Position numbers and translations under genes: made by a program. 64,000 nucleotides of DNA, taken from a virus (lineage: Duplodnaviria; Caudoviricetes). Position 1 is the first letter of the stretch. Each line of letters opens with the position of its first letter. The stretch is taken from the IMG/VR virus record IMGVR_UViG_3300015360_000002, positions 796 through 64,795 of that record; one strand, given 5' to 3'. The notes beneath the pieces were generated by a model. That model was given only the letters and a program-made list of their open reading frames with translations, ran no database searches and was not told the DNA's origin. Positions 3,947 to 53,800 of the stretch are shown piece by piece.

Positions 3947-3953
3947 CGGCGAA

Positions 3954-3961
3954 TGCAACCG
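3954..3961 (+). promoter_or_regulatory. Putative late-promoter motif TGCAACCG
   Basis: Same 8-mer in five intergenic gaps before virion genes. Here it starts 45 nt upstream of the scaffold ATG. Confidence 0.65.
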
Positions 3962-3998
3962 AACACATCGCCCGCGGCGTTCACAGAACGGCGGGGCA

Positions 3999-15155: not shown

Positions 15156-15764
15156 ATGATCGCAGCCGTCATCACTCGCACCGGAGAAATCCTCTACTCG
15201 GCCCTGAACCACGTCGCGGAGCAGGAGGCTGGCGACATCGAGCCTCAAGGCACCGCCCTTGGCACCGACTATGAGGCTTTTGGTACGCCACCAACCCCGA
15301 CCGCTGGCATACCGATCGTGGGTATCTCAGCGGACCATCTCGCGTGGATCGAGAAACTTGGCGCGAACTACATCGGGTTCACCAATCCATTCGACCACCC
15401 CGTCAATATAGATCCGGACGCGGTGACGGTTGCGGAGTGGTACAAAGACGCCCATATCGCACGCATCGAGATCCCATGGCAGGATTTTTCGGACGGCGGC
15501 CGCCACAAAGAATTCTTCGAGCTGGTCCTTACCTTCCAGCGCGATACCCGCCTTTACCTGGGCGTCTATGCTGAAACCCAGCCGCGTGGAATCCGTCGGT
15601 TCGCGTGGAAGGGACTGGTGTTCGATCCCCAGTTGCCGGTTCGCGTGCCACTGCGCCTGGCCGGCACACATCTGCGTCTTCGCCTTGTCATGGTGGTGTT
15701 CAACCAAGGACGGGCAATGCTGAAAGACTTGCGGATCGGGTGGAACCCAGGCGGCACGAGCTAG
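15156..15764 (+). CDS. Tail nozzle-like protein, C-terminal part
   Basis: Ends in a beta-sandwich pattern (HKEFFEL.L.F...GTHLRLRL) typical of gp10/tail-tubular-B C-termini. Confidence 0.45.
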   Translation: MIAAVITRTGEILYSALNHVAEQEAGDIEPQGTALGTDYEAFGTPPTPTAGIPIVGISADHLAWIEKLGANYIGFTNPFDHPVNIDPDAVTVAEWYKDAHIARIEIPWQDFSDGGRHKEFFELVLTFQRDTRLYLGVYAETQPRGIRRFAWKGLVFDPQLPVRVPLRLAGTHLRLRLVMVVFNQGRAMLKDLRIGWNPGGTS

Positions 15765-17050: not shown

Positions 17051-17075
17051 GGGGAGGAGGAATTTCGGGCTGTCA

Positions 17076-17120
17076 AACTGTACAATTCGACTTTTTGCCA
17101 ACTGTACAAGAACTATGCAA
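17076..17120 (+). repeat. Integrase arm-type sites, left of core
   Basis: AACTGTACAA at 17076 and 17100, AACTATGCAA at 17111. Confidence 0.7.
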
Positions 17121-17215
17121 CCCAAAAGGGCGATATGATGCGATATACCGCGCCACATCAGGCTCAACCAGAGGGAAATGTACGTTATAGCGAACTATGC
17201 CGACAGGAAAAGCAG

Positions 17216-27504: not shown

Positions 27505-28379
27505 TGAAACGCCCAGCTTTCCAGTTTTATCCTGGGGATTGGCTCCACGATGCTGCCCTGCGATCCTGCTCCATCGAGGCCCGCGGGCTCTGGATGGACA
27601 TGATGTGCATCATGCACCAAGCCGAGCCGTATGGCTATTTGATGGTTAACCTCAAGGTTATCAATGAGGATAACCTTGCTCGGTTGGTCGGCGTACCCCG
27701 AAAGAGACTAAAATCTCTACTTTTTGAGCTAGAAAATGCCGGAGTTTTCTCAAAAAATATCGAAAATTCCGCGTTATTTTGTCGAAGAATGGTGCGAGAT
27801 GAAGAGGTCAGAAATCGGCGGGCACAAGGAGGCTCTTTGGGAGGTAATCCGGCTCTTTTGAAGCATAAAAAACATGCTCCGAAGGATAACCCGAAGGATA
27901 ACGATAAGGTTAACCTCGCAACAAAATCCTGTATAACCCCTTCATCTTCATCTTCATCTTCATATTCATACATAAGAGCGTCGGACCAATCCGACGCGGA
28001 TGAAAAGAATGAAGAAAACCCGGCAGAAAACCCGGCAAAAAAACGGCAAACGCATCGCGAACGAAATCCTCTTTTTGATTCTTTGGCAAAAGTAGGAGGC
28101 TCGAATGTTCTTGAACTCACAACTTCCGCAGCCCGAGCGGTGGGCGTTGCTCTGGCGGAGATTCGCAGAGCGACCCCGGACGTCACCACGGAAGAAATTG
28201 CCCGCCGTGCAAACACGTTTCGATCGCGAAATCCGACGTGGAAACTGACGCCGAACTCCCTGGCGCGCCATTGGGCCGAATGTGGATCCACTTTCACCAC
28301 CCCGCAGGAACAGATGGACCTCCCGGACAACGTGAAAGAACTCATTGCAATTCAAAACGCGCACCAATCCCATGCCTGA
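27504..28379 (+). CDS. Replication initiator (lambda-O-analogue, YdaU-like N-terminus)
   Basis: KRPAFQFYPGDWL...ARGLW, RRMVRD, poly-Ser linker, directly upstream of the helicase. Confidence 0.8.
   Translation: MKRPAFQFYPGDWLHDAALRSCSIEARGLWMDMMCIMHQAEPYGYLMVNLKVINEDNLARLVGVPRKRLKSLLFELENAGVFSKNIENSALFCRRMVRDEEVRNRRAQGGSLGGNPALLKHKKHAPKDNPKDNDKVNLATKSCITPSSSSSSSYSYIRASDQSDADEKNEENPAENPAKKRQTHRERNPLFDSLAKVGGSNVLELTTSAARAVGVALAEIRRATPDVTTEEIARRANTFRSRNPTWKLTPNSLARHWAECGSTFTTPQEQMDLPDNVKELIAIQNAHQSHA
27644..27970. repeat. Iteron-like repeats / probable replication origin
   Basis: Several AGG(T/A)TAAC(C) copies at 27644-27677 and 27882-27916, an AT-rich stretch between them, and a (TTCATC)n run. 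Confidence 0.6.
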
Positions 28380-29727: not shown

Positions 29728-30116
29728 CCACCACAGGCACAATCCTCCGCGCCAGCGTACGCAATGATGGCACCATCGAACTCAGGGACCAAGAAAACCG
29801 GCTCCACAACGACAACGACCTGCCGGCTTGTGTCGCTCTGGACGGTTCTCAAGCGTGGTTCCGTTATGGCCAAGGACACCGGGACACCGGACCTGCGTTC
29901 ATCCACGCCAACGGGTCTGCCGTGTTCTTCCTCAACGGATCTTTCGTCATGCAGGATGATTCCGGCTTCAGCCTCCTCAACCCACCCAAGCCGGTCGTGT
30001 TGATCGAGACCTTGCGCAGCCTGTACAATGTCGCACCGACCAAGGAAGTCGAAGACGCGATCCTCGCGATTGCCGAAAAGCACGGGCATCCCACCCACAC
30101 AGTTTGCTTCTCATGA
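29724..30116 (+). CDS. Hypothetical protein with HR.GPA-type repeats
   Basis: LHNDNDLPA / WFRYGQGHRDTGPA (DUF2963-like). Confidence 0.55.
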   Translation: MTTTGTILRASVRNDGTIELRDQENRLHNDNDLPACVALDGSQAWFRYGQGHRDTGPAFIHANGSAVFFLNGSFVMQDDSGFSLLNPPKPVVLIETLRSLYNVAPTKEVEDAILAIAEKHGHPTHTVCFS

Positions 30117-30994
30117 CGTATTATAACGACCACGACGCAAAAACCTGCGCCTGGCTGCGAGAGCTCATCGCCTGCGATCTCATACCGGCCGGCGAAGTTG
30201 ATTCACGCTCGATCACCGATGTCCACCCAACTATACTTGCAGAGCCTCATCAATGCCATTTCTTCGCCGGCATTGGTGGCTGGCCGCTCGCGCTCCGCCT
30301 CGCAGGATGGCCCGATGACCAGCCTGTCTGGACTGGCTCCTGTCCGTGCCAGCCTTTCTCAGTCGCCGGAAAACACACAGGCGAAAACGACTCGCGGCAC
30401 CTTTGGCCTGAATTCCTCAGACTCATCACCGAGCGACTCCCTTCAACGATCTTTGGAGAACAGGTTACGGGCGCGTCTGGACGTCAGTGGCTCTCTGGAG
30501 TACGTGCTGACTTGGAAACGCTGGGATATGCAGTCGCTGCCGCCGATTTGTGCGCTTCGAGCGCGGGCGCACCTCACATCAGGCAAAGATTATACTGGGT
30601 GGCCAGCGCCGACGGTCGGAAACGCGACAGGCAGTCAATCGGCGAAGGGCGCGAGCCCAACGGGACGAAGGGAGGACGGTTCAAAGGCGACCGTGAGCTT
30701 GAGCGCGGTAGCGAGGTTGGCGGGTTGGGCGACCCCAACTGTGCAGGACTCGAAGAACAACGCTGGTCCCTCTCAGTTTCGCCGGAACAGCCTCCCCCTC
30801 AATTGCGAGGCAACTCTTGGAGTCACTTCGATCTCCTCCCTTGCACAGACGGCAAAACGAGGCGGATTGAACCCGGCTCATTCCCGCTGGCTCATGGGAT
30901 TCCCGCCCGCTTGGTGCGACTGCGCGGTTACGGCAATGCAATCGTTCCCCAAGTCGCCGCTCAGTTCATCAAAGCGTTCATCGAAACCCGCTGA
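30113..30994 (+). CDS. C5-cytosine DNA methyltransferase, alpha chain
   Basis: Motif I FFAGIGG, IV SCPCQPFS, VI GEQV, VIII HIRQRLYW, X GNAIVPQVA. Motif IX absent. Confidence 0.9.
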   Translation: MTYYNDHDAKTCAWLRELIACDLIPAGEVDSRSITDVHPTILAEPHQCHFFAGIGGWPLALRLAGWPDDQPVWTGSCPCQPFSVAGKHTGENDSRHLWPEFLRLITERLPSTIFGEQVTGASGRQWLSGVRADLETLGYAVAAADLCASSAGAPHIRQRLYWVASADGRKRDRQSIGEGREPNGTKGGRFKGDRELERGSEVGGLGDPNCAGLEEQRWSLSVSPEQPPPQLRGNSWSHFDLLPCTDGKTRRIEPGSFPLAHGIPARLVRLRGYGNAIVPQVAAQFIKAFIETR

Positions 30995-31602: not shown

Positions 31603-34429
31603 TCAAGCGTCCTGACATCGAAATCGGCTTTCGATCTCCTCCCCCATACTTCGCCCCGATGAGGTCGCCGCCGCCTCGATCGCCCGAATCCCGGCCGGCG
31701 ACAGCCAGAACGTCCTCTGCGCCTTCGCCGCCTCGCCCAAGCTATTCCGCCCAGCCCCCGGCGCCCGCTTACGCAGCTCCAGCCCCAGCGCGCGCGCATC
31801 CCTTTTGTGCGGATGAGAGCCAACGAGCCACACCGGAGCGATCAGCGATAACTGACCCGCGACGCTGCAGAAGTGATCCAAGGCATCTTTCGCGCCTCCC
31901 ATCGTCGCGTACGTCCCCAACGACCGCGACCGTCCCCCCACCGAGTAGTCACACTCGTAGATTGCTCCTAACTCATTTACGCCCGTCAGCTTCAGCCTCA
32001 GCCCGGGACTCATGGTGCAACCTCCCGAACGCTTGACGTATTCCCTACATGGTCACGCTTCAACGCCTTCAACTCTGCCACCGCCAAGCCAAGCTCATCC
32101 ACTGCCGCTTGCCACGCGCACGCCGCCCTAAGAATCCCCTGCGGATCATTTTGATCTATTCCTAAAGCGTGCCGCACGCGCACGTTGGCATACTCCCTCT
32201 TGGCGTGCGCCCACGCGCTTTTCGCCTCCGACTTCCTACGCACCGCTTGCGCGTAGGAAGCCCATTGTGAATCGCTCATTAATTTCATAATCACGTCTCA
32301 GTTTCGAGCGTTCCGCACGCCCAGTTATCATCGCTGACTCCCCAGTCAGCGCCCGCATCAGCATCGTCAAAAAATGCACAATGCGCTTCATCGAGCCAGA
32401 AGCCTTGGCTCCTTGCCAGCGTCCACGCATCATGCCACACCCCGGCTTGATCCCCGCACAAAGGCGACCTCGGCTCCTCTCCAAACACATCAACCCAAGC
32501 GTCTCCCATCGTCTCGCTTGCGTCGCAAAATCCATGAGAGTGGCAGATGGCCGCATTCGGCTCCTTTCTGTTTGCTTCCACCACATCGGCCAGTGCCTCC
32601 CGGCCGATGTCGAATAGTAATCGCTGAGCAAACGCGCGCGCCAACCGTTTCATCGTGCTCATTTGGCTAAACGGGCGTTGATCGCGGCAATTTCCGCGCG
32701 CAGTCCAGACTCAATGTCGGCGACCTCAGCCCCCCATAGTCGCCGATCGTTCAGCATCGCAACAAGGGACGCATAACCTGCCTCCAAGGCGAGGTCTACG
32801 AGAGGAGAGTCAAGCACATCACTGACTGGTAAATCATATATTTTCATTGTTTTTGGGTTTTTTGTTTTTTGAACGGGTTACCGAACCGCTGGCGGAATTC
32901 CGCAAGCTGGAACGTCTGGGCAACGCGGAAGGAGGCGAGGCGGGATCCGCCGTAGCGTGAGACTTCGAGGCGGGCTCCGCCATAGCGAGCGGCTGCGAGT
33001 GCGGAGTACAGGACACCGGCACCAGCGCTGTGGTTGGCGATCGCCCGGACTGCTTCAGCCGCACCCTCGACGGCCCATGGAAAGGAATAGACGGCGTCGA
33101 TGTGGGCGGAAATGGCGGCTTCTTCGGCGGCGCTGTGCTCTTCTGAAGTCGCCGCGCCCACCGCAAAACGCTCAGTGACCTCCACTGCCGTTCGGCTCTC
33201 AGTGCTCAGCAAATCCCAGACCTTCCTCCCGTCCGCAAGCGGGGTCTGCCTGATGCACCAGCACCCGTACAGCCTCAGGCTTCCCCGATCGGCCGGCACG
33301 ACATACTCGTGTGTCCAGACCAACCAATCCACGCGATCGCATGCGTTCCACGCCCCGTGAAGCGTCGAAAACATGGACGCGAACTCGCTCGCTTCCGAGC
33401 ACACATCATACAGGTCAAGGAATTCGCGAATACTCATGGAATCGTACGTTTTCATCGTGCTTTTGTTGAGTTTTTTGTCGGGCGGGCCCCTGCGCTCAGC
33501 GGGTGTGCAGCCGCAATGCATCCTTCATCGCGGATGGCCGCAGGGACTTCACCGTGACCATTGTCAGGGTGTCTCTGACCAACTCGTTGGTCCCCGTGCG
33601 ATAATAGGACCCGTCAAATTGCGCGATGTACTCACGGCACGCTGTCAGCGTACCGACCATCGCCAGATCCACGCTGTCGGCCGTAGGTCCGTAGAAAAAC
33701 CGCCTGCGTCGGACAGCGTGAGTTGGCAGTTTTTTGATGTTTTTCATGATGATTATTTTTTGTTTGGGTTGAGGGTTGAGTGAGGTGATTCTTTTTTAAG
33801 CGCGCGACCTGAAGCGGAGGTCGCTTGGTTTGGTGCCGGCGATGATGAAATAGCGCCCGCAGGCGCTGATCCCCATCAGGCTATCTAGATTGATCCCCTG
33901 TGCTGATGCCTCTGCGCGGATGGCATCGGCCTCGGCTGCGGCCATATTCCCGAGCGACAGCCCGGGGAACGTCGGGACAACCAGTGCTGCGTTTTCCACT
34001 TCATCCATGAGCCAGTTGGTTTTCATGGTTGGTGCCTCACTCCACCACCTGAACCCACGCCGATGCGAACGCGGTGTTGTTGCTGACCGCATTCTCCACC
34101 GCCTCCTGAGCCACCCGCCCGAGCCCTCCGCCCTCAACGCCCGACCGAGTTTCCAACCAATCGATCGCCTCCGCCGCCGTCTCGCACGAGCACGCCGTGC
34201 TCCTGTCGTACTCATTCGCCCAAGCAGTCAGATGTTCCTCCAAAACCACGAACCGCCCGCCCTTGGTGCGGTAAATCCATACCTTGGTGCACCGATTTGC
34301 TCGGTTCCCGTGTTGGATGCAGTTGTCCGCACGGCCAATCAATTCGCCCGTGAACCTGATGGGCGGAAGCCCGTCTCGTTTGATGCTGATGGGCGGTAGC
34401 GTGTCTCGTTTGATGCTGATCTTATCCAT
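31603..34429 (-). CDS. Reverse-strand cluster of small accessory genes (31603-32013, 32010-32294, 32291-32662, 32659-32847, 32844-33455, 33496-33747, 33796-34026, 34037-34429)
   Basis: Mostly coupled short ORFs with A-rich leaders. Functions not recognised. Confidence 0.6.
34356..34420 (-). repeat. 30-bp in-frame tandem duplication
   Basis: Encodes ISIKRDTLPP-ISIKRDGLPP. Confidence 0.9.
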
Positions 34430-34518
34430 GTTTTTTGTTGCCCCCTTTTGACTCCCGGTAGGCGGTGGGAAAGCAGACGGGCCGGTCTGCCAGCGGTTCC
34501 TAAAATTGATTGAACGCT

Positions 34519-35241
34519 CTACATGCCGGACCTCTGGAAAGACCAAAAGCCTACCCCCAACGGATCGCATTCCCTCCGCCCCATTATGAGGTGGTCTATC
34601 ACCGTAATATCCACCGTTGCCCCCGCCTCCCGCAGAGTGCGTGTGATCCGGATATCTTGGGCGCTGGGACTCGGGTCTCCGCTGGGATGATTGTGCACAC
34701 AGATAATGCCCGATGCCGACTCCATGATCGCCGTTCGGAACACCTCCCGGGGATGCACCAGCGTGCTTGAGGCGATTCCTGATGAGACCTCCACCCGCTT
34801 GATAAGGCGTCCTTTGCGATTGAGGCAGAGAACCCAGAACTTCTCCACCTCCAACCCCGCGCACACGGGCGACATGTGATTTGCTACTTCATCTGGCACG
34901 TCCAGAATTGGCACCACTCCCGGCACCCCTGCCGTCATCCTGCGGCCAATCTCCATCGCCGCCACCAGCCTCTCCGCGAACCCCCTCGGGATTCCCGTCC
35001 GTGCCATCCGCGCGAGATCCCACCCCGCCAGTGCTGGCAGGTTTCCCGCAGCCGCCACAAGCTCCCGCGCCTTGTCCACCGCCTTTAGCCGGTCACCCCC
35101 ACACAATGCCGCCACAAGCTCCCCGTCTGAGAGAGCCTGCGCTCCATATTTGGCCATCCTCGCCTCCGGCCCTTCGTGGAGAGCCATCCCGCTCTCATCC
35201 CTCACAATCCACCGACCATTTTTCGTTTTCATCTCCCGCAC
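34519..35241 (-). CDS. radC: RadC-family JAB/MPN protein
   Basis: GAQALSDGEL, E.FWVL.LN, VHPREVF, HNHPSGDPSPSAQD, DHLI. Confidence 0.92.
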   Translation of the reverse strand: MREMKTKNGRWIVRDESGMALHEGPEARMAKYGAQALSDGELVAALCGGDRLKAVDKARELVAAAGNLPALAGWDLARMARTGIPRGFAERLVAAMEIGRRMTAGVPGVVPILDVPDEVANHMSPVCAGLEVEKFWVLCLNRKGRLIKRVEVSSGIASSTLVHPREVFRTAIMESASGIICVHNHPSGDPSPSAQDIRITRTLREAGATVDITVIDHLIMGRRECDPLGVGFWSFQRSGM

Positions 35242-35630
35242 TTACCCACAAAACCTTAATAACCGCACGCTTAAAATTAGCACCACTCGCATCCTCCTCT
35301 ACCTCAGTCACTTCCGCTTATCATAGTTCACGCGTCGCTCAATTCCCTTTCCGAATTTCAGAGGGTGTAACCTCCCCTTCGGGTAAAACGAGGCGATCTA
35401 CTCCCATCGAACCACCACGGTTCACCTCTCAGCATCCCCAGCTTCTTTTCTTCGTGAAGCCATATCTCTTTGCCTGCTCTATGTCTTTCGGAGTCGGAGG
35501 GCTTTTACACTTCCGTCAAGCTCTTTCTCGCTTTTGAGCCAACAAGTCTCTTCTGCGTACCTCTCCTCGCTTTCCAGACTCCTTTTGCTTTTGCGTTGTC
35601 TTCGCCCACCGGCTTACCTCAATCATTCCC

Positions 35631-36092
35631 ATGTCACCGCGCCTATCCAGCCCGCGTTCGTCCGATCAAGGACCATCGAGGGGTCGGGGCATGGCTATCG
35701 AACAAGCGATTTCGTTTTCCGCTGACGAGGTCGCAAGAGCCAAGGCCAAGTTGCTCGACCTGATGGATGCCAATGTCGTCGTCAGGGGCACTGAGCGTAA
35801 TGCTGAAGGTCGATGCGTTTACATTGAGGTCGCCAACCAGCCCATCCAGCTCGCGGCCGCGATCAAGGTGGTCGAGTGGGGGATTGGCAAACCGTCACAA
35901 ATGGTCGTGGTCGATCAAACGGAGAGTTATCGACCGGCACGAGCGGATCTCGGAAAGATGCTCGTCGCGAATCCCTCCTTGATTGAGACCGTACTGCGCA
36001 CGATCAAGGAGGCGGCTGAACAGTCGCAAGCGATTCCCGTGCAGAGCGTTGTGTCAGATCGGGCCGAAGCGGCACAAGAGTCAATATCTTGA
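35631..36092 (+). CDS. Putative terminase small subunit
   Basis: QLAAAIKVVEWGIGKP resembles the AA..L.dRg.GKP motif of small terminases. Followed by a C-run/G-run site. Alternative ATG at 35691. Confidence 0.45.
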   Translation: MSPRLSSPRSSDQGPSRGRGMAIEQAISFSADEVARAKAKLLDLMDANVVVRGTERNAEGRCVYIEVANQPIQLAAAIKVVEWGIGKPSQMVVVDQTESYRPARADLGKMLVANPSLIETVLRTIKEAAEQSQAIPVQSVVSDRAEAAQESIS

Positions 36093-36114
36093 GGCTTACC
36101 TAGCTAAGTCTCCA

Positions 36115-36135
36115 AACTGTGCAAGGACTGCGCAA
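36115..36135 (+). promoter_or_regulatory. Isolated copy of the integrase arm-type tandem motif
   Basis: AACTGTGCAAGGACTGCGCAA: 18/21 to 17332-17352 and 17/21 to 17100-17120. Confidence 0.65.
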
Positions 36136-36390
36136 TCTCCATCCCCCTTCCCCTTCCTCTCTCTTCCCCATGGTCATCCTCTCCTCTCCTCCCGTCTTGT
36201 CGCCGCGCCGATCGTCGGCTCGCTGCCTTGTCGCCGCGTCACCTACCCCCCCACACCCCTTTTTCGTGTCCCCGTATCGGCGCAGCCAGGCGCGCGGTAC
36301 TGGGGGGTCCCCTGCCTCTTTGGTATTGGGAGGGGGGAAAGGAGAGAAAAAAATGGGAGAATTTTTTTGGAAGTGAAAAAGGAGAGTTAA
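36136..36390. other. Candidate packaging / genome-end site at a sharp C-rich to G-rich switch
   Basis: Pyrimidine tracts, ACCCCCCC (36245) ... GGGGGGT (36302), then purine tracts. Confidence 0.5.
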
Positions 36391-36392
36391 AA

Positions 36393-36821
36393 ATGGCGAC
36401 ATTGAACAAGGTTTTTTTGATTGGGAGAGTGGGAAGGGACCCTGAGATGAGGGAGGTGGGGAAAGGAGGGGTTGTGTGTAATTTTTCGATGGCGGTGATG
36501 AAGGAGGTGGAGGTGGAGGAGGGAGTTAGAAGAGAGGTGACGACGTGGGTGGATTTGGAGGCGTGGGGGAAGACAGGGGAGTTGTGTGGGAGGTATTTGA
36601 GGAAGGGGGGAGGGTGTCACGTGGAGGGGAGGTTGAAGGTGGAGGAGTGGGTGGACAAAGTGAGTGGAGGGAAGAGGAGTCGGATGAAAGTGGTGGTGGA
36701 GCGTGTGCAATTTTTGGATAGGAGGGAGGGAGTGGAAGAGGTGAAGGAGGTTAAGGAAGTGAAGGAGGTTAAGGTGAAGAGGGAGGAGAAGGTATTTCCT
36801 GACGAGGACGCGCCATTTTGA
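36393..36821 (+). CDS. ssb: Single-stranded DNA-binding protein
   Basis: LNKVFLIGR.GRDPE, YLRKG...VEGRL, acidic DEDAPF tail. Confidence 0.92.
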   Translation: MATLNKVFLIGRVGRDPEMREVGKGGVVCNFSMAVMKEVEVEEGVRREVTTWVDLEAWGKTGELCGRYLRKGGGCHVEGRLKVEEWVDKVSGGKRSRMKVVVERVQFLDRREGVEEVKEVKEVKEVKVKREEKVFPDEDAPF

Positions 36822-36829
36822 GGGGGAGA

Positions 36830-36873
36830 GAAACTGAGAAACTGAAACTGAAACTGAAACTGAAACAACTGAA
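36830..36873 (+). repeat. (GAAACT)n intergenic microsatellite
   Basis: About 6-7 imperfect copies between ssb and the next gene. Confidence 0.85.
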
Positions 36874-36878
36874 GGAAT

Positions 36879-37205
36879 GTGATGAAAACTATTATGGAAG
36901 TGATGAAGTCGGAGGAGGCGAAAGAGATGGCAGAAAATCAGATGGGGGACGCGGTGAAGGGTGTGATGGAGCGAGTGTTGAAATGGCGAGATGAGCTTCT
37001 GGAGGGAGGGATGGAGGAGGGAGATGTGGTGAAATCAGTGATAGCGACGGGGTATGTGCTGGGGGTGATGGACGCGGCGAAGAGCGCAACTCAGATTGGG
37101 AAAATGAGTGGAGAAGTTCCGCTGAAGGAGTGGGGAGATTTTACGAGGGAGGTGGTAAGAAATCTCCAGAGCAGGAGGAGTGGGAGGGTAGCAGGGAGGA
37201 ACTGA
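36879..37205 (+). CDS. Hypothetical protein
   Basis: ORF in the purine-rich block. Confidence 0.55.
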   Translation: MMKTIMEVMKSEEAKEMAENQMGDAVKGVMERVLKWRDELLEGGMEEGDVVKSVIATGYVLGVMDAAKSATQIGKMSGEVPLKEWGDFTREVVRNLQSRRSGRVAGRN

Positions 37206-37206
37206 A

Positions 37207-37725
37207 ATGAAGAAGAGGGGCCTGGCGATTAAATGGATGGAGCTACCGGAGCACGTGAGGGCGATGAATCGTCACGTGGAGGGGGAGGTGTTTGTGAGGA
37301 ATTTTGAAGAGTCGTTGGGGATTGAGAAGGAGATGGTGAGGAGGGAGGAGAAGGGGGAGGAGAGAGCAGTGAGACGACTGAGGCAGAGACAGGAGCCGGT
37401 GATGAACAAACTTGAGGAGCGGTTTTATGAGCAGTTGAAGAAGGACAAAGATCGGTGTGACGAGAAGGGGAAGGTGATAGGGGAGATCAAGATTCAGGCA
37501 GTGAGGTTGGAGTTGGCGCGGGGGATTTGGTACAAGCCGGACTTTTTTTTGGTGGAGGGGAAGAGTTTGAGGCCGATCGCGTATGAAGTGAAGGGGCCGA
37601 AAGTGTTTAGGGGAGGGTTTGAGAATTTGAAGGTGGCGGCGAGGGTGCACGCGTGGATCAGGTTTTATCTGGTGTGGGAGAAGACGCGAGGAGGGGAGTG
37701 GGAAAGACAGGAGGTTTTACAATGA
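37207..37725 (+). CDS. PD-(D/E)XK endonuclease (DUF1064-like)
   Basis: MNKLE..F, YKPDF, YEVKG. Confidence 0.75.
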   Translation: MKKRGLAIKWMELPEHVRAMNRHVEGEVFVRNFEESLGIEKEMVRREEKGEERAVRRLRQRQEPVMNKLEERFYEQLKKDKDRCDEKGKVIGEIKIQAVRLELARGIWYKPDFFLVEGKSLRPIAYEVKGPKVFRGGFENLKVAARVHAWIRFYLVWEKTRGGEWERQEVLQ

Positions 37726-39131
37726 ACAACAACGTGAATAGCGCGCTGGCAAAAGCTGGGATGACGAAGGAGAACGTCCGTCGGATCATGGACGAGGTGG
37801 AGGTGAATTATGAACGGTTGGACAGGTGTCCGGCGCACGCGTTTGAGTTGATCGAGGGAGGGCAGCCATTGCGGAACCGATATGCGTGCAAGGTGTGTGG
37901 AGGGGAGGTCGACAATACGGCGCGATTTTGGTATACGAAGGGACTGGAGCACGGGAGGAGATTTGGAAAATGACCGCGATCGAAACAGTGAAGGAGTTTC
38001 AGAAGTGGAGGAGGGGAGAAGGGAGGTACGCGGGTACGGAGAACGGGGGGAGGCCGGAACCGATGCCGCAAACGCCGGAACAGTATGGGTTGGCGATTGA
38101 CGAGGTGGTGAAGTTGGCGGAGATCGGGAGGCTGTCGGTGGAGGAGGCGAGGACGTGCCATGAGAAGCTGCCGCTGGACGTCTGGCTCAAGGCGAAGGCG
38201 GCGTTGCTTGCGAAAATTAATGAATTTATGAATACGAAGGGGGAACCATGAAGCGGGCGATCGTGCAGTTTGTGGCGGTGGTTGGGATTATAGGGACGAC
38301 CCTGCATGTGGTGCTGGGCGTTTCTGTCGGGTTGATGGTGGTTTCCGCAGTGGTGAGTGGAATAGGGGTGGTTGTGGTGATTGCGGCCGCGGTCAGCCTG
38401 AAACGGAAAAATGATAAAGAGGAGGAGGGCAGATGAAACTGACGACGCTCGAACTTGAACGGATGGCGAGAAGGGGAGCGGAGGACGGGTACGATACGAC
38501 GTGGCACGCGCAGATGACCGAGAGTCCAAGGATGAGATCGACCATGGGGAGGATTCGCGACGAAACGCTGGCAACGCTTTTTTTGGAGGACGAAAAGGCG
38601 TATCAGGAAAGCCTGGCAAAATGGGGGAAGGAAAATGGATGAGGTGATCCATTTTACGATTCCGGACATAAAGCTGGGGGTGACGCGCAAGCTGGAGATG
38701 GAGACGCTTGCGAGAGAACTGAGGAAGCACGGGTTTAAGGTCGGAGGTATGAGAGCGGTGCAGTCATGGATGTCGGTGCGAGAGATGGAGGATAAGTTTA
38801 AGAAAATTCTCGAAGAAGCGGGGGTGGCCCGACTGGTGGTCTGGCACGAAGACCGAAATCGCTGCGTGAACGTGCGGGCATACCGTAAGGTGAAGTAGCG
38901 ATTTTTCTGATGTCGATACACGTGATACCGATTGGGGATGAGAAGCCGCACGAGACCACGCACGAATGCGCGTGCCGGCCGACCGTGGAGTGGGTGGATC
39001 CGACGGACGGTAAGCCGTACGAGAATGGCCCGTTAGTCATCCACAATTCGTACGATGGCCGGGAATACGTGGAACGTGCGATCGGGGAAAGTCTGGTGAA
39101 GGGGAGTCGGTGGAAAGTGATCGAAGTATGA
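37722..39131 (+). CDS. Small hypothetical genes (37722-37973 Zn-finger-like, 37970-38251, 38248-38436 membrane, 38433-38642, 38635-38898, 38910-39131 H..C.C.P motif)
   Basis: Chain of overlapping start/stop codons. Confidence 0.55.
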
Positions 39132-39931
39132 AACCGTCAAAATTAGATGCGGTGATTTGTTGCGACTTGATTCGTGGAGTTTACTCCGCGTTTGAAGCAT
39201 GGGAACAGTCCGGCCGGCCCAGAGAGGGAAGTTTTGAATGGAAGGACTGTTTGATTTGGGGGGAGTCGATGAGCTACGAGCGCAGGCCGGGGCCGCGTGA
39301 GCGGCACCATTGGGTCAGGGAGTGGTCACCAATGGGCACGTGCCTGTTGATTGGGAAAACGTTGTACGTGGTTTTCCGGGGAACATGCACCGCGCATGAG
39401 TGGAACAACAACGTCCGGTTTCCGCTGCGATCGTTTCGGGTGCCGATTGGAGCGGATGTGAATTTGTTGGCACCGCGCGAGTATTACATGGGCAACGTCC
39501 ATGACGGATTTGCGGACTCAATGGAATCACTTCAGCAGGATCTTATCGCAGAGGTGAAGCGCCTGATACCGGGAGCAGAGAGGGTGATTGTCACAGGGCA
39601 TTCATTGGGGGGTGCGATCGGAACGCTCGCGTTTGCGTCGATCCTGGCGCGGTTGCCGATTGCGAGAATGACGACGGGGATGGTGTTTGGCTCGCCGAGG
39701 GTCGGGAACCAGGAGTTCAAGCGTGCATTTTACACCGTGGGGAATCCTGAGACGTTCTGGAGATACGAGTTGATGCACGATCCGGTCGTGGATGTGCCAC
39801 CCAGGAAGATAATGTGGGTTTGGGAATACAATCACGTGGGCGAGCAGATTCTCCTGACGGAGCAGTTCGGGAGCGATCGGAAGAATCACGCGATCGAGAG
39901 CTATCGGACGGCAATCATGAACCTGCCATAG
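39128..39931 (+). CDS. Class 3 lipase (alpha/beta hydrolase)
   Basis: VVFRGT, VHDGF, VTGHSLGGA nucleophile elbow, FGSPRVGN, DPV..VP, YNHVG, C-terminal H. Confidence 0.9.
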   Translation: MKPSKLDAVICCDLIRGVYSAFEAWEQSGRPREGSFEWKDCLIWGESMSYERRPGPRERHHWVREWSPMGTCLLIGKTLYVVFRGTCTAHEWNNNVRFPLRSFRVPIGADVNLLAPREYYMGNVHDGFADSMESLQQDLIAEVKRLIPGAERVIVTGHSLGGAIGTLAFASILARLPIARMTTGMVFGSPRVGNQEFKRAFYTVGNPETFWRYELMHDPVVDVPPRKIMWVWEYNHVGEQILLTEQFGSDRKNHAIESYRTAIMNLP

Positions 39932-39941: not shown

Positions 39942-39975
39942 GGATGTGATTGATTGGTTTCGGAAGGATCAAGGA

Positions 39976-41796
39976 ATGACGGAATTTGCAATGTCTAGCC
40001 CCCTCCCCGGCCAAGACCACAATCTCACAGCGGAGCAGATCCAGGATCTCCTCTTTCAGGATTTTGAGGTCTGGGCGCACAGTTTTGCGGTATTCAAGTC
40101 GATCAAGGGCGGCACGCCCCATCACGGGTTGATTCCAAATGTCCTCCAGCTTCGGGTGATCGCCCATTATCGGCGCTGCATTATCGAAAAAAGGCCATGC
40201 CTCATCATGATCCTCAAGCCGCGGCAGAAGGGCGCATCGACGATCGCGGAGGCGGTGTGTTACCGGCACATGCGGATGCACGAGAACCTGAACGGAGCGC
40301 TGATGGGCGACGTTCAGAGCACGTCGGACAAGGTTTTTGAGATGTTTCGTACCTACGCGAAAGAGGACGCGTACCCGTACGCCGACGGGAATCCGAACAT
40401 CATGAAGGACTTGGACCTGACGGACGAAATCACACTCGGCAGCGGATCAAAATGGTGGAAGGAGACAGCAGGGAGCTCGAACGCGGGCCGATCGGGTACC
40501 GTTCAGGTGCTGCACTTGGACGAGGTGGCATACTTTCCGTCTTCCGACACAAAGGATCCGACGACAGCGGTGTTGGGTGCGTTCTACAAAGAGGGTCCGA
40601 TGTCGCTCGGATTCGCGACGTCTACCGCGAAGGGGGCGGTGGGATGGTTTCACGATACTTGGTGGGGCGATAACGACTGGCTCAAGGTTTTCGCCGCCTG
40701 GTTCGAGTTTAAGGACTCTGTAACTCCATTTCCGTCGCCGAACGCGCGCGCTCAGTTCGAGCGCACCATGACCAGGGACGAGATCGAGGAGCAGGTCCTC
40801 TACAAGGTCTCGCCTGAGCAGCTCCAGTGGCGCCGAAAGAAGATCCAGACCGACTACAAGGGCGACACGGGCAAGTTCCGACAGGAATACCCGTCCAGCG
40901 AGCAGGGAGCCTTCCTCAGTTCGAGTCGTATGCGCTTCGAGGCGTCCTCCGTGTCCGCAATGATGGTGTGGGCGCAGACCAACGACACGCGGGAGACGGG
41001 CAACCTGCGGCAGCAGATTGCGGGAGGAGCCTCGACATGGATGCCGGACCAACAGGGTTCAGTCCATCGCTGGGAGGAGCCCGTCTTTGGGCGGAAATAC
41101 CTCATTTCGGTGGATGTGTGTACGGGCAAGGACCAACAAATTGGGGGTACAACCGCGAATCCCGACTGGCACTCCGTTCAGGTGTGGCGACAAGCGTTCA
41201 TGAACGAGGATGGGGTCTACCGAAAACCGGCGCTGGTCATGCTTCACCATTCGCGTGAAGACATTGATATTCTCGCAGAAATCATCGCAGCGATGTCAGC
41301 CTACTATGGCCAGTGTCTCGTCGTCCCCGAGGTGAACAACTGCGGATTGGCGCTGGTTAAAGCACTCGTGAGACTCAAGGTGAACGTGTTCCGTCGACAG
41401 GCGCACGTCCAGCGCCGCAAGCAGGAGACGGAGGAGGAAAAGCTCGAAGCGTTCGGGTGGCTGACCGACAAGATGACCCGCAAGTGGATGATCGACGAAG
41501 TAGCACCGATCATTCGTCAAGAAGGAGTGGAGATTAAGGCGCCCGAAGTCCTTCAAGAGATTCAGAGTTTCGTCATTGATGACAACGGAAACGCGAAAGC
41601 AGCACCATCCAAGCACGACGACCACGTCATGGGAATGTGCATCGGTATTTACAACCTTGGGCACGCAACGGAGTACAAACTGGCGAAGGTGACCGGGATG
41701 GACCTGAGCAGGCTCGGTCGAGATCCGCGATATATGGCCGGCGAGGGTTGGCGTCGGCGGATCCCGCTGGATGCCCTCCGGAGTAACCGCAAGTAA
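39976..41796 (+). CDS. terL: Terminase large subunit
   Basis: LKPRQKGAST Walker A, LHLDEVA Walker B, STAKG motif III, ISVDV nuclease Asp, HDDHVM. Confidence 0.92.
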   Translation: MTEFAMSSPLPGQDHNLTAEQIQDLLFQDFEVWAHSFAVFKSIKGGTPHHGLIPNVLQLRVIAHYRRCIIEKRPCLIMILKPRQKGASTIAEAVCYRHMRMHENLNGALMGDVQSTSDKVFEMFRTYAKEDAYPYADGNPNIMKDLDLTDEITLGSGSKWWKETAGSSNAGRSGTVQVLHLDEVAYFPSSDTKDPTTAVLGAFYKEGPMSLGFATSTAKGAVGWFHDTWWGDNDWLKVFAAWFEFKDSVTPFPSPNARAQFERTMTRDEIEEQVLYKVSPEQLQWRRKKIQTDYKGDTGKFRQEYPSSEQGAFLSSSRMRFEASSVSAMMVWAQTNDTRETGNLRQQIAGGASTWMPDQQGSVHRWEEPVFGRKYLISVDVCTGKDQQIGGTTANPDWHSVQVWRQAFMNEDGVYRKPALVMLHHSREDIDILAEIIAAMSAYYGQCLVVPEVNNCGLALVKALVRLKVNVFRRQAHVQRRKQETEEEKLEAFGWLTDKMTRKWMIDEVAPIIRQEGVEIKAPEVLQEIQSFVIDDNGNAKAAPSKHDDHVMGMCIGIYNLGHATEYKLAKVTGMDLSRLGRDPRYMAGEGWRRRIPLDALRSNRK

Positions 41797-50557: not shown

Positions 50558-50805
50558 GCCCGCGCGCAATAGCCACCCAAGGTCTCGGATTCGGGACGCT
50601 CTACGTCGCCGTCCTCGGACTCTTGCCATTGGCGCAGCCGGTCGAACCGGCGCCATCCATCGTCAGAAGTGGTCTTCAGGTAATGCAACCCACCATCCGC
50701 GGAACGGATGATCCAGAGTTGCACCAGTACCTCCAAAACGCGGCGGAAGAGGAGGAGATTCTTGTGATTCTACACTGCATCAGCGCATTCACTGACATCC
50801 GATGA
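50554..50805 (+). CDS. Hypothetical protein
   Basis: AIATQG start and EEEEIL end, coupled at both ends. Confidence 0.55.
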   Translation: MSPRAIATQGLGFGTLYVAVLGLLPLAQPVEPAPSIVRSGLQVMQPTIRGTDDPELHQYLQNAAEEEEILVILHCISAFTDIR

Positions 50806-53800
50806 CATTCAACGCTCTTGAACGGTGCCTCAAAAATGCGGGCAAAGCATTCTCTCCTAAAGAGGCGAACTTACTGCGCCGTCTTGCTGAACAATATGCC
50901 CAGGACGGAGCAAATGCGCTCGTCGCTTCGCAAAAGGCAGTCAAGTCCATCGCAGTGGTCTACAAGGCGAACCTCGAAAAGCTCAATGCGCACTACGAGG
51001 AAATGGGCGCCGTTATGCCGGTCAGAACGGGTTCACCAACCAAACTGTCAGAAAACTATGCGCCTCCGGAAAAAGGCAAACGCGCACGGTGGTCAGTCGG
51101 GCTCACGCCAGACGGCAATGAGGATCTCCTCAGCGTAATCGAACAGTTGGGCGGAATCCGTGTTCCATCAGCCACACGCAATTCTGGGGGCGAGTTGAAC
51201 GGTTTTGCTGAAACCTTCAATACGGGTATGGCTCGCCTCCTTCGACGCACCAATGCAACGGCGTCGACGGTCGATCAGCTACTTGGCGAACTTCCGTCCT
51301 ACGGTTACACGTTTGACACGCCCGACCAGCTTTATTCAGCAGTGCTGAAAGCAATGGAAACGCGCCGAAAGGTTCACAAAAATCAAAAGACTCAGGCTTA
51401 CGAAAATGCTTTCGATGAAGCGTTCCTTGGCAACGAGCAGAAGAAGCCCATGCTGCGCGCTGGAAAACCTGTCACGATTGACGATCTTGGCGTTGGCGAC
51501 TCTTTCGAGGTTAATGGAGAGAAGTTCACGGTCAAAAACGTGGACGAGGATGGGAACGTAACCATTAAAGACGGAATCACCCGGACGATCCCTCCTGACA
51601 CCGTCGTTTATCCCGACCGCGGCGAGGTCAAGCCGGCCAAACGCGACGCCACGTTTGCTCCAACGCCTCCAAAAAACGAACCCGATCCGAGATTTGGACC
51701 ACGCAAAGCCGTTCAACCGGATCTCATTCCCGAGGGCGATATTGAAATGACTCTCGACGGCGGCACGCAGGCCGACCCTGCATACCTCCTGAAGCAAAAA
51801 GAGGAGCAGGAAGCGGCGAAGAAGAAGTTGGAAGACGATCAAATCAAGATCCCTGAAGCCGAAAACACGCCGAAGAGAAACCCACTCCTTCCGAATCGCG
51901 ACTCCGTCTTGCCTGATGTGAATCAGCCCAAAGACACCCCGGCATCACCCGCTCCAGCCGGCGTCAAGAAGCCATCACGATTCGGCGGAAAGCGGCCCAG
52001 TGCCGAAACCCAGAAACTCGGCGACGATATTTTCGGCGCGCCCGCTGAAAATACCTCGAATGAAAAGTACGGGAAGAAATTCGGCACGAACCTGGCGAAG
52101 GCAAATCAGTTTGTTGATACCATTGTGCGGGACTTTCCTGATGTGACGAGCCGTGAAATGCTGGCCGCGTACATCGAGGAGTTTTTCCCGAATGCGAAAC
52201 CTTATTCGGAGGCGTTGTTCCGCAACCTTGGCAGCGCGATCGACGTCGATGAAACCGGAGGAATCGACTCGTGGGATTCATTTTACACGCCTGCGGACGA
52301 GACTCCGTCGACGCAGCCCCCACCGACTCCGCCACCTGCACCGCTTCCAAAATCGGGAACGATCGCGGAACGATCGTTGGAGGCAGCAAAACTCATTGAG
52401 GCGAGAATCAACACCAACCCGGCCGAGATGACTTGGCGTGAATTGTTCGCGCTCACAGACCAGGCATTTGGCGGCACACAAGCCGATGGGACATACACCG
52501 TCAAAGATGCTTACGACGCTTTGGAGACGGCCGTAAACCGATACATCCTTGTGCGTCTTCCAATGCCCGTGGACGGTTCCGTCCCTACGGCGCTCAACTA
52601 CATTCAGGAGCTGAATACCCTTCTATCGCGAATTCCGACGCAGACAAAGCGCAGCCAAGAGCAGGATCGGATGCAGCAGTTTTCCACCCCGCCACCGTTG
52701 TCTTTCGTCGCCAATTGGGTCGCGAATTTGAACGAGAACGACATCTACCTGGAGCCGAGTGCTGGAGTCGGCGGGCTGGCAGTGTTCGCCAAGTCCATCG
52801 ACGTAGGGGCTATCATCGCGAATGAGTTGTCGATGGCGCGCTCATCAATTCTTAATTTGAGCGACATTCCTGATGTCGTAATCACCGAAAATGCCGAAGT
52901 GCTTCACGCGATCGTGAACAACAAGATCGCTCGCGGTGATTTGCTGCGACCCACAGTGGTTGTGATGAACCCGCCGTTCTCCAATAGTACTGCGGGAGTC
53001 CTTGGTGACACGATGGTCGGCGCGAGGCACATCATGGAGGCTTTGAAGATCCTGCCTCCGGGTGGTCGATTGGTCGCAATCGTCGGCGAGGGTATGGCAA
53101 TGGACAAACCCACTTTCCGGGTATGGTGGAAAGACCTCGGCACTAAATACAACGTCCGCGCCAATATCCACGTAGACGGGAAGAATTACACGAAATACGG
53201 CACGAGTTTCGGCGTTCAGCTTGTCGTCATCGACAAGCCGCTGGCAAATGAAGTGGTAGGCGTAGTGAATCCGATTGTTGCTGAAGTTGACTTGATTGAA
53301 CAACTACCTAACCTGTTAGAGGGGATTCGCAATGATCGCAAACCAATCAAACTTGAAAAGCCTGAAACACCGGCCGATAAACCAAGCGGCGGCAAACCGC
53401 CTACGGGAAATCGACCCAAGTTGGACGCCCCACGAGGACCTACCAGTCCTCGAACTGGCGATGGCGGTTCTCCCCGAGGAGGATCCCCGGCTGCCAACGG
53501 TGGTGCAGCAAACCAGAACCCCAGCGTCCCAACGGCAAGCACTCCGCCACTTGGAGACGTACCTGACGCCGGACGGCCTGATGGCGGGGACGCCGGAGGA
53601 CGCAGCGTCACTGATAGCGGACGAGCTTCAAGCGAACAACCCGCTGGAGTAGATCCAGCCGACGCGGACAGCGCCCCACAGGGCAATGAAGACGACGAGG
53701 TCTATTCGGACTATACGCCGACCAAGGTTGCATCTGACGGATCCCAAAAGCATCCAACTCCGTTGGTTGAGAGTGCGGCAATGGCGTCGGTCGCGCCGCC

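Follow-up and report, generated by a model that had tools for sequence, protein, structure and literature searches.

A steep strand bias that begins at a conserved element upstream of terL and fades with distance rewrites proteins in an uncultured phage

Introduction

Host-imposed ending of phage transcripts is a familiar problem, and the known solutions, among them lambda N and Q, HK022 put and P4 Psu, use a protein or a folded RNA that acts on the polymerase or on the terminator Rho. Rho loading requires RNA that is C-rich, G-poor and unstructured, and ribosomes normally shield translated genes from it. Restriction-site avoidance is known in first-entering DNA, in the early region of T7 and the first-step-transfer DNA of T5, and leaves a local region near a genome landmark poorer in palindromic sites. 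The strand asymmetries of replication origins and mitochondrial genomes change sign at one point and affect both codon and amino-acid usage. RNA paired with its template can also prime DNA synthesis, as do ColE1 RNA II, phage T4 oriF and oriG, and the mitochondrial heavy-strand origin; clusters of G are what start R-loops. Rut sites are biased towards C over G (PMC13650167), and the classic sign by which R-loops are predicted is a positive GC skew of the non-template strand downstream of a start, as at CpG-island promoters and immunoglobulin switch regions (PMC3787257).

Here we describe a phage locus that resembles each of these in part. The window, by which we mean the whole 64,000-nucleotide stretch of DNA that was analysed, contains a zone that shares with GC-skew R-loop zones (PMC3787257) an excess of G over C on the non-template strand, a defined start, a fade over 1-4 kb and a separate zone for each diverging unit; it differs in covering phage protein-coding genes whose products are rewritten, in a far higher amplitude of up to +0.85 and in having no enrichment of G clusters; a phage R-loop is a candidate only. 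It has the single-point sign change of origin and mitochondrial asymmetries, but it decays within 3.5 kb, is rich in G+A rather than G+T, lies 8.3 kb from the candidate origin and leaves the genes between its two arms unskewed. Unlike the case of T7 and T5, its loss of palindromes is what composition alone would give, and rewriting proteins costs far more than removing single sites. The rule that Rho loads where C exceeds G predicts that the RNA made here would go unbound, and in contrast to known antitermination the device we propose is the composition of the message. Our literature search found no description of such a zone.

Results

Table 1. Coordinates of the features of the skewed region; positions are those of the window
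Feature	Position	Strand	Evidence or remark
Leftward operon, mirror zone with G-rich sense strand	31603..35241	-	Sense-strand skew per gene
Small ORFs of leftward operon	31603-32013, 32010-32294, 32291-32662, 32844-33521	-	
RadC-like JAB gene of leftward operon	34519-35241	-	Pfam RadC 4e-39; phrog_10276
Non-coding leader of leftward operon, 390 nt	35242..35630	-	Minus-strand reading purine-rich; region diverging from terS-like ORF
terS-like ORF, conserved, unskewed, putative function	35631..36092	+	Skew +0.08 to +0.10
Polypyrimidine tract, C-rich and G-poor, upstream of element	36093..36230	+	Base counts
Conserved 95-base element, unique in genome	36231..36326	+	Model R1, 60.8 bits
C-free spacer with A-tracts, ending at ssb start codon	36319..36396	+	78-nt run without C
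ssb, first and most skewed gene	36393..36821	+	Pfam SSB E 2e-26; skew +0.78
Eight small genes, fading skew	36879..39131	+	Skew per gene, below
Small gene	36879-37205	+	Skew +0.63
Small gene, weak match to Holliday-junction resolvase family	37207-37725	+	Skew +0.62
Small genes	37722-37973, 37970-38251	+	Skew +0.41, +0.43
Small genes	38248-38436, 38433-38642	+	Skew +0.51, +0.34
Small genes	38635-38898, 38910-39131	+	Skew +0.40, +0.27
Class-3 lipase-like gene, gradient tail	39110..39931	+	Pfam Lipase_3 9.5e-25 (51 proteins scanned); skew +0.25
terL, large terminase, near baseline, 3.7 kb from element	39970..41796	+	Skew +0.08

A preliminary description of this DNA had reported an extreme skew switch near 36.3 kb, with some 6% C in ssb and a fade over about 3 kb, and measurement bears this out. 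GC skew of the plus strand, in 200-bp bins, is +0.79 and +0.85 at 36.4-36.8 kb and falls rightward, reaching about +0.25 at 39.8 kb and, within terL, about +0.1. Against the background outside 31-40 kb (mean -0.022, SD 0.065, maximum +0.16; 109 windows of 500 bp) the zone peaks at z = 11.2 and stays at z of at least 4 over 3.5 kb in 500-bp windows. The ssb gene is 5.8% C (25 of 429) and 48.5% G, and besides the spacer (Table 1) a plus-strand run of 89 nt (36709-36797) is free of C, within which falls the stretch 36721-36780 already noted as lacking it. AT skew in the zone is positive, with A exceeding T. An assembly artefact was rejected, since a run of a second study holds a variant of the block that is about 99% identical; in the assembled contigs of the two runs, which were the material used, one contig of the source run continues unbroken across the switch and the element.

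This strand bias is strong enough to rewrite proteins, as had been claimed. In ssb all three codon positions are depleted of C (0.05, 0.08 and 0.04 at first, second and third positions, where ordinary genes have about 0.25, 0.27 and 0.41), and the products of skewed genes are enriched in V, E, K, R and M at the expense of A, P, S, T and Q. In the first three genes the four-fold sites hold C 0.01, G 0.71, A 0.18 and T 0.10, compared with 0.37, 0.30, 0.16 and 0.16 in other plus-strand genes. The ratio G/(G+A) in two-fold R-ending codons is 0.81 as opposed to 0.59 elsewhere, and thus G itself is favoured. The bias of the sense strand towards G and away from C is maintained by selection and not by mutation bias.

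The bias, which depends on distance, starts at a conserved 95-base element composed of C-tracts, CACCCCTTTTT, CCCCGTA and a GC-rich core, in that order. It is present in eight related uncultured high-GC phage contigs; the training rows of Model R1 that carry it are L012, L010, L008, L023, L024 and L015, and L002, from outside the training set, also matches (E 6e-9). Its DNA is conserved among phages whose terL is only 50-67% identical, and it always lies between the terS-like gene and terL, upstream of terL in eight contigs; the position first given for the switch is correct. The element has no Rfam match and no covarying fold. Two 31-nt direct repeats (36326-36356 and 36366-36396) occupy the spacer that follows it. 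Before it, C makes up 43.6% and G 20.5% of 36101-36320, and C is at least 1.5 times G in 16 of 16 windows of 78 nt in 36093-36320; this polypyrimidine tract is specific to the studied genome, and relatives have in its place a small gene with an SSB-like tail.

The relatives show a bias that tracks distance from the element rather than gene identity. Skew decays over 2-4 kb in all eight element-bearing contigs, weak though it is in one. For seven of them, the element marks an abrupt rise in mean 500-bp skew from -0.06 to +0.33, followed by +0.38, +0.32, +0.29, +0.22, +0.15, +0.13 and +0.03 in successive bins; in the eighth, L002, it is just +0.11 to +0.14. GC3 skew of terL is 0.56, 0.36, 0.52 and 0.40 where the gene lies 69, 710, 1003 and 1997 bp from the element, and 0.04, 0.09 and 0.01 at 3413, 3708 and 6493 bp (Spearman -0.86, p 0.014, n=7); orthologous terL is thus skewed only within about 2 kb. 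The skewed terL genes form no single clade, and in L014 and L015 the skew drops along terL itself. The SSB homologues at 57% (L003, the closest) and 44% identity are unskewed, and across the 72 codons replaced in ssb relative to its L003 homologue C goes from 64 in the homologue to 10 in ssb and G from 51 to 116. Import of the block from a G-rich donor, for which the preliminary description had allowed, was rejected on the unskewed SSB homologues and on terL being skewed only near the element. An SSB gene or one for a protein with an SSB-like tail adjoins the element in seven of the eight contigs, and RusA, or a weak match to another resolvase family, falls inside the zone in five.

Some 1 kb to the left, where the leftward operon begins, lies the start of a second, mirror zone. 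The left side had been called C-rich on the plus strand, which holds for four of the five minus-strand genes tested (sense skew +0.27 to +0.31) but not for 32844-33521 (+0.02); the plus-strand genes at 28-31.5 kb, included in the same claim, are C-rich only mildly (skew -0.05 to -0.26), and the exception made for the terS-like ORF was right (+0.10). Four-fold sites of the operon hold C 0.16 and G 0.56. Its leader has plus-strand GC skew of -0.46 and -0.34 and AT skew of -0.42, and no minus-strand ORF of at least 50 aa. The left zone recurs in every one of the five contigs whose left flank reaches 2 kb or more (minima -0.27 to -0.43), and in L012 its genes read from the 5' end +0.29, +0.40, +0.23, +0.19, +0.11 and +0.04. 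All confidently called genes of both zones point away from the switch. Between the zones lie about 0.6-1 kb without skew, where the terS-like gene is found, joined in relatives by the small gene with an SSB-like tail; as these two genes are unskewed (-0.09 to +0.20), there are two anchors, and two anchors fit two diverging transcription units better than one DNA end. Homologues of the terS-like ORF at 38-44% identity occupy the equal position in L012, L010 and L002. The ORF has no match in Pfam, PHROG, NCBIfam or PDB sequences, and its fold model (pLDDT 61.6) gave no significant fold match.

Three further readings were rejected. The iteron-like repeats (27879-28042, inside a gene with a weak replisome-organizer match and beside the DnaB gene) lie about 8.3 kb away, close to the 8.5 kb first estimated, and baseline is regained within 3.5 kb without replichore-long persistence; the bias is therefore not simply origin skew, as the preliminary description had also judged. 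Its suggestion that persistently single-stranded ends had been deaminated fails because T at four-fold sites falls instead of rising (0.10 and 0.07 versus 0.16 elsewhere), with A unchanged and A exceeding T. Nor does a G-quadruplex signal hold up, since shuffles give 2.9 +/- 1.5 motifs where the 2811 nt examined have 0.

Discussion

In proposing an explanation we need to account for a bias that is anchored, graded and costly to the proteins encoded. Our preferred reading, tentative and in our judgement less likely than not, is that a G-rich, C-poor nascent RNA has been selected so that the C-dependent terminator Rho cannot load. Each zone would be the promoter-proximal part of one of two diverging transcription units. 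The bias would act through transcription, the nascent RNA being so nearly free of C that it would present no Rho binding site. As termination early in an operon would silence all genes downstream, the penalty for each C would be highest at the 5' end and fade with distance, giving a gradient. Antisense RNA and the C-rich tract before the element would be ideal Rho substrates, and the stopping of read-in and antisense transcripts would insulate the unit.

The base composition is consistent with this proposal: along the sense strand of the block, C exceeds G in none of 274 windows (78 nt each), compared with 47-60% of windows in other genes, and does so in 100% of antisense windows and 16 of 16 in the upstream tract. 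The sense strand thus has no C-rich, G-poor stretch, and a host with Rho is indicated by one genome bin, of a Planctomycetota, which holds the related contig L015 and encodes Rho (Rho_RNA_bind E 8e-33). A single 5-kb contig in that bin is what ties these phages to Planctomycetota. A scan for sigma-70-type promoters over 35200-36450, whose coverage does not extend to planctomycete promoters, returned 0 sites, and none of the RNA runs searched held the stretch. Several considerations count against evasion of Rho. Near-total loss of C within ORFs looks excessive given that ribosomes shield them, and if the rightward unit continues through some 40 kb of late genes, polarity on its own should give a slower decay than one over 3.5 kb. 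We know of no described phage strategy of evading Rho through base composition, and of nothing comparable in most phages of Rho-bearing hosts. A wider version, possible but to our minds doubtful, is that base composition is itself the device: a near three-letter alphabet, running from a start element, would withhold cytosines from host factors, leaving both the message and the exposed non-template strand free of cytosine targets. Rho would be the prime candidate among such factors, the others being chain-terminating CTP analogues, C-site RNases and cytosine deaminases. If true, antitermination or counter-defence would here be cis-encoded, would need no protein and would override protein sequence.

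That the bias is a DNA-level effect anchored at a packaging site, with the element as pac or cos and the zone as DNA beside the virion end, seems unlikely. The zone would then form the terminal redundancy of the first headfuls, or else the DNA that enters first or last, and its three-letter strand would remove GC-containing palindromes or keep resected strands free of hairpins for quick annealing. The uniqueness of the element, its conservation despite the divergence of terL and its constant place beside the terS-like gene all suit such a site, as does the 2-4 kb scale, a fitting length if terminal redundancy amounts to a few percent of 65 kb; several relatives' contigs (L015, L014, L001, L011) begin in or near the zone, and a giant internal virion protein with methyltransferase and helicase domains suggests a contested entry phase. 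Unskewed genes, however, fill the 0.6-1 kb between the element and the left zone, which begins at the head of an operon, so that packaged ends centred on the switch, as first envisaged, are not well supported. Palindromes are 65-80% rarer in the first kb, but over the block the reduction of 32-35% (4-bp palindromes 44.5 versus 65 per kb, 6-bp 9.25 versus 14.3) is matched by shuffles of equal composition (43.4 +/- 3.9 and 8.95 +/- 1.82), and hence nothing is avoided beyond the skew, contrary to the earlier idea that the bias serves to remove palindromic sites. A Chi-like G-rich octamer common to six zones was not found, the terS-like annotation has no support in any library searched, and the source-run contig passes through the element without a break. 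Packaging usually proceeds toward terL, and DNA packaged first is injected last; in that direction the DNA of the zone would enter the cell at the end. We think it similarly improbable that the zone serves R-loops or priming. In such a zone the G-rich RNA would stay annealed to its C-rich template once the polymerase had passed, leaving the G-rich strand displaced, and next to the packaging genes this could give late replication or recombination a primer or an opening in the DNA. Positive non-template skew matches the classic predictor (PMC3787257), and the orientation agrees with it in eight of eight contigs, given a transcription start that is itself putative. The decay over kilobases suits R-loop sizes, the preference for G holds against A and not just against C, the SSB-type and resolvase genes noted above are close at hand in seven and five contigs, and self-folding of the block's sense RNA is weak, at -0.205 kcal/mol per nt where other regions give about -0.30 to -0.34. 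The clusters that should start R-loops are nevertheless not in excess: runs of at least G3 number 86, where composition shuffles give 117 +/- 7 and synonymous ones 78 +/- 3, and counts at the minimum lengths G3, G4 and G5 are no higher than shuffling predicts. Known priming R-loops, moreover, span tens to hundreds of bases and not 3.5 kb of essential genes, persistence would hamper replication and packaging, and the likely origin is 8.3 kb distant.

Escape from some other host attack, one that depends on C being present in RNA or on the exposed non-template strand, we rate as quite unlikely. Candidates are the chain-terminating ddhCTP of prokaryotic viperins, toxins that cut mRNA at C sites and single-strand cytosine deaminases acting on transcribed DNA. 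The 1% of C left at four-fold sites suggests a cost for each single C, a gradient from the 5' end is expected where the chance of termination or damage per C is polar, and the trait is common to both diverging units; yet such an attack predicts loss of C only and not the preference for G over A at R-ending codons, and defences of this kind are rare, whereas the trait is fixed in eight diverged phage contigs. A local mutation bias without function, from replication or transcription exposing one strand, appears very unlikely indeed. The switch from minus to plus has the sign of that at replication origins, and in L002 a homing HNH-AP2 gene directly after the element, apparently a recent insertion, is barely skewed, which implies that skew builds up in place over time. 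But the change is from C to G with T falling or flat, A unchanged and A above T, where deamination predicts a rise in T, and an equilibrium of 1% C requires a transversion bias of a kind that is not known to us in bacteria. The genes between the two zones are also unskewed, and decay takes 2-4 kb rather than a replichore.

Other observations

PHROG matches among the eight small genes are to phrog_190 (2.6e-7), phrog_9844 and phrog_2864. The translation of the lipase-like gene contains a GHSLGG motif.

Magnitude of the skew and its effect on coding sequence

The G-rich, nearly C-free block that begins right of ~36.3 kb is led by ssb (Pfam SSB, E 2e-26), in which C accounts for 25 of 429 nt (5.8%), just as the preliminary description had counted, and G for 48.5%. 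In 200-bp bins the GC skew peaks at +0.79 and +0.85 and falls to ~+0.25 by 39.8 kb. Against the background of 109 windows of 500 bp outside 31-40 kb (mean -0.022, SD 0.065, maximum +0.16), the peak corresponds to z = 11.2, and z is at least 4 over 3.5 kb. Loss of C affects all three codon positions. At four-fold sites in the first three genes (n = 160) the frequencies are C 0.01, G 0.71, A 0.18 and T 0.10, compared with C 0.37, G 0.30, A 0.16 and T 0.16 in the other + strand genes (n = 8189). Arginine is encoded by AGG or AGA and leucine by TTG, and protein sequence is itself reshaped, as first proposed: V, E, K, R and M are enriched, and A, P, S, T and Q depleted. Relative to the closest SSB homologue found, an unskewed gene on contig L003 with 57% identity, 72 codons are replaced, taking C from 64 to 10 and G from 51 to 116.

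A ~99% identical variant from a second-study run contains the block, which excludes an assembly artefact. The same variant lacks 360 bp, the entire second block gene, and has lost 18 nt each from the KEV repeat of ssb and from the third gene; these losses imply that the gene content of the zone turns over among near-identical strains. Two short repeats lie in this part of the window: GAAACT, repeated perfectly for 4.8 copies in the spacer that follows ssb, and a 9-nt periodicity corresponding to a Lys-Glu-Val run in the SSB linker.

Features of the window
Feature	Position	Strand	Remarks
Integrase-like gene	15761-17167		
Iteron-like repeats	27879-28042		inside gene with weak replisome-organizer match, immediately preceding DnaB gene
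Probable C-5 cytosine DNA methyltransferase ORF	30104-30994	+	between replication genes and leftward module
Leftward operon	31603-35241		mirror zone
Region rearranged in variant	32000-35200		leftward module
Repeat unit absent from variant	34373		30 nt
Purine-rich leader	35242-35630	-	
terS-like ORF	35631-36092	+	between the two zones
Conserved element	36231-36326		
ssb	36393-36821	+	
9-nt periodic repeat	36720-36792		within ssb
18-nt deletions in variant	36741; 37328		ssb; third gene
Stretch absent from variant	36835-37196		second block gene
GAAACT repeat	36838-36866		
terL	39970-41796	+	
Internal virion protein gene	50802-60191	+	3129 aa; methyltransferase-like domain (residues 599-817), Strawberry-notch-type helicase domain (AAA_34 + Helicase_C_4; 983-1739), internal-virion-protein stretch (2769-2978)

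A conserved element at the switch

The switch coincides with a 95-base DNA element, present in a single copy in the window, in which C-tracts are followed by CACCCCTTTTT, CCCCGTA and a GC-rich core, with A-tracts next. Relatives retrieved through terL carry it as well (L012, L010, L008, L023 and L024, with a partial copy in L015, a contig that starts there), and these copies together with that of the window were used to build a sequence-only model, R1, from seven copies. R1 also detects a diverged copy in L002, outside its training set (E 6e-9). The eight element-bearing contigs have 54-64% G+C, and their terL products are 50-67% identical to that of the window. The element has no Rfam match and no convincing covarying fold, the covariation term for its seven predicted pairs being negligible; a scan of the switch for promoters of the E. 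coli type, whose consensus may not be that of the host, returned 0 sites. The sole two matches of a short-pattern scan in viral contigs, L016 and L017, are chance hits and make a weak control: L016 has neither skew nor homologues, and L017, a 1.3-kb locus, was judged by reading its sequence.

The gradient follows distance from the element

Averaged over seven contigs with the element as common reference point, the skew of 500-bp windows is -0.06 immediately to its left and then, moving right, +0.33, +0.38, +0.32, +0.29, +0.22, +0.15, +0.13 and +0.03. The genes that occupy this zone differ: SSB and a gene weakly matching a resolvase family in the window, and, among relatives whose genes were called by a simple custom script, NUDIX (L012), RusA (L010, L024), a sigma-70 region-4 protein (L008), an HNH-AP2 endonuclease (L002) and terL itself (L015). 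In L002 the right-side skew is merely +0.11 to +0.14. Directly 3' of its diverged element (3585-4007) lies the HNH-AP2 gene, homing-endonuclease-like and barely skewed, apparently inserted too recently to have acquired the local composition.

Since terL occurs at various distances from the element, one gene can be compared within the zone and beyond it. Starting 69 bp away, terL has a GC3 skew of 0.56; the values are 0.36 at 710, 0.52 at 1003 and 0.40 at 1997 bp, and then 0.04 at 3413 bp, 0.09 at 3708 and 0.01 at 6493 (Spearman -0.86, p 0.014, n = 7). In L014 and L015 the skew drops along terL itself, and the skewed terL genes do not group in a single clade. A low-GC sister group (76 loci, 44-47% terL identity) shows an orientation-linked step of ~+/-0.12 only; the motif pattern of the element was found in 0 of these 76 loci, and R1 matched 0 of the 36 searched. 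Three low-GC viral contigs (L005, L006 and L007; 23-31%), reached through weak SSB similarity, have a + strand skew of +0.2 to +0.5 across most of 8-13 kb and represent a distinct instance of a strong G excess on the sense strand.

Two diverging gradients and the genes between them

Gene order is shared by six of the eight contigs: a terS-like gene, a small gene with an acidic tail, the element and the first skewed gene. The stop codon of the small gene lies 31-52 nt before the element, and the first skewed gene begins 130-160 nt past it. The small protein ends in an Asp/Glu-rich stretch followed by Pro-Phe, a tail that is degenerate in L002 and that is similar to the extreme C terminus of bacterial SSB; an identity as DUF736 was considered and dropped, there being no Pfam match. 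The window lacks this gene; a C-rich polypyrimidine tract occupies the position, and canonical ssb comes right after the element. For the terS-like ORF, no match was obtained in Pfam, PHROG, NCBIfam or PDB sequences. Its fold model has a pLDDT of 61.6 and best fold matches at E >0.2 (SPP1-like small-terminase cores at E ~1), and an alignment scan recovered the L002 contig again and nothing else.

Neither the terS-like gene nor the tail-bearing gene is skewed (-0.09 to +0.20). The left, negative zone starts beyond them, at the head of the leftward operon, and every contig whose left flank reaches 2 kb (five in all) has it, the minima lying between -0.27 and -0.43. In the window it comprises a 390-nt leader followed by RadC and small genes with a sense skew of +0.27 to +0.31; the leftward genes of L012, from the 5' end onward, have values of +0.29, +0.40, +0.23, +0.19, +0.11 and +0.04. 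A lone DNA end or origin at the element should skew the adjoining DNA on both sides; two diverging transcription units, each with its own 5'-to-3' gradient, are the simpler description. In the variant from the second study the leftward module is also rearranged: several stretches are skipped, others replaced, and one repeat unit is missing. The module looks like a variable accessory region.

What maintains the skew

The trait is very probably maintained by selection on strand composition, tied to the element and to distance from it. Mutation bias is a highly improbable cause: T at four-fold sites is lowered or unchanged, A is more frequent than T, and on balance C is replaced by G, which contradicts both cytosine deamination and a mutation bias of single-stranded DNA, including the deamination of persistently single-stranded ends once offered as an alternative. 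Origin skew had already been discounted in the preliminary description, correctly, the iterons being 8.3 kb away and the bias gone within 3.5 kb. Import from a G-rich donor fails because the closest SSB homologue is unskewed and orthologous terL genes are skewed only near the element. As to what is selected, we tentatively prefer a reading in which a high-G, low-C nascent RNA is maintained to deny Rho a place to load; polarity would make each C costliest close to the 5' end. Windows of 78 nt with more C than G number 0 of 274 in the sense block, compared with 100% in antisense, 16 of 16 in the upstream tract and 47-60% in other genes. G is preferred over A too (0.81 vs 0.59), and a C-minus-G rule or an R-loop thus fits better than plain avoidance of C. 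Against Rho evasion, the promoter scan and a search for RNA runs containing this stretch both came back empty, ribosomes should already shield open reading frames from the factor, the decay is short if the unit continues into late genes, and we know of no description of Rho evasion through base composition.

An R-loop or priming zone would suit the SSB-type and resolvase-type genes that are constantly nearby, yet it is unlikely given the size of the zone and the lack of G clusters. No G4 motif occurs where 2.9 +/- 1.5 are expected, which disposes of the quadruplex signal suggested at the outset, and the block has 86 runs of at least three G, where composition shuffles give 117 +/- 7 and synonymous shuffles 78 +/- 3. 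We are similarly doubtful that the zone reflects a packaging site or DNA entry, a reading that takes in the original proposal that these are packaged genome ends purged of palindromes. Palindromes are no rarer than composition predicts (4-bp, 44.5 per kb vs 43.4 +/- 3.9 expected; 6-bp, 9.25 vs 8.95 +/- 1.82), the remaining genome having ~65 and 14.3 per kb. Nor is there a Chi-like motif, in that no G-rich octamer is common to six zones; GAGCACG, a 7-mer, occurs in excess but is neither zone- nor strand-specific. That the C-poor strand answers some other C-dependent host attack is rather improbable.

The usual view of strand composition is that replication or transcription leaves it behind passively. 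An essential terL that is ordinary or heavily rewritten by element distance alone is unusually clean evidence of selection on strand composition, and such selection can outweigh that on protein sequence. Searches of the open-access literature turned up no phage zone of this kind; the 'extreme GC skew' near gene-transfer-agent genes involves skews of order 0.03 (PMC9836097). If transcripts do evade Rho or another C-dependent host factor, this would be a new kind of phage counter-measure, and genes could be made termination-proof by following a simple rule of design. Should the element turn out to be a site of packaging or priming, the zone would represent a DNA signal of a new type near the ends of phage genomes. 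Under either reading, the element and its gradient offer a testable way into a group of uncultured phages tentatively linked to Planctomycetota.

The phage and its possible host

The virus contig, of which the window covers nearly all, is 64,795 bp long with a 107-bp overlap between its ends, indicating a circular assembly. The phage looks temperate and tailed, with podovirus-type matches for the portal, capsid and fibre genes, and nearly all genes on the + strand except the module at 31.6-35.2 kb. There are no tRNA genes in the window. The 3129-aa internal virion protein is comparable to phage P1 DarB, an injected anti-restriction protein; an N4-like virion RNA polymerase within it is unsupported. 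A DNA_methylase match (Pfam, 4.6e-18) came from 51 proteins scanned together, and its likely source, assigned via translation, is the putative cytosine methyltransferase ORF.

Among 50,697 phage records, no cultured relative has a terL of >26% identity. The tentative link to Planctomycetota comes from a single 5-kb contig in a single bin; the bin, which contains L015, encodes Rho. A 1.9-kb contig of the Planctomycetota bin, L022 (G002:C93), has a terS-like homologue, and L015, with the element and terL, starts as a separate contig. At the end of L022 (1813-1920), two 36-nt direct repeats ~35 nt apart look like the start of a CRISPR array.
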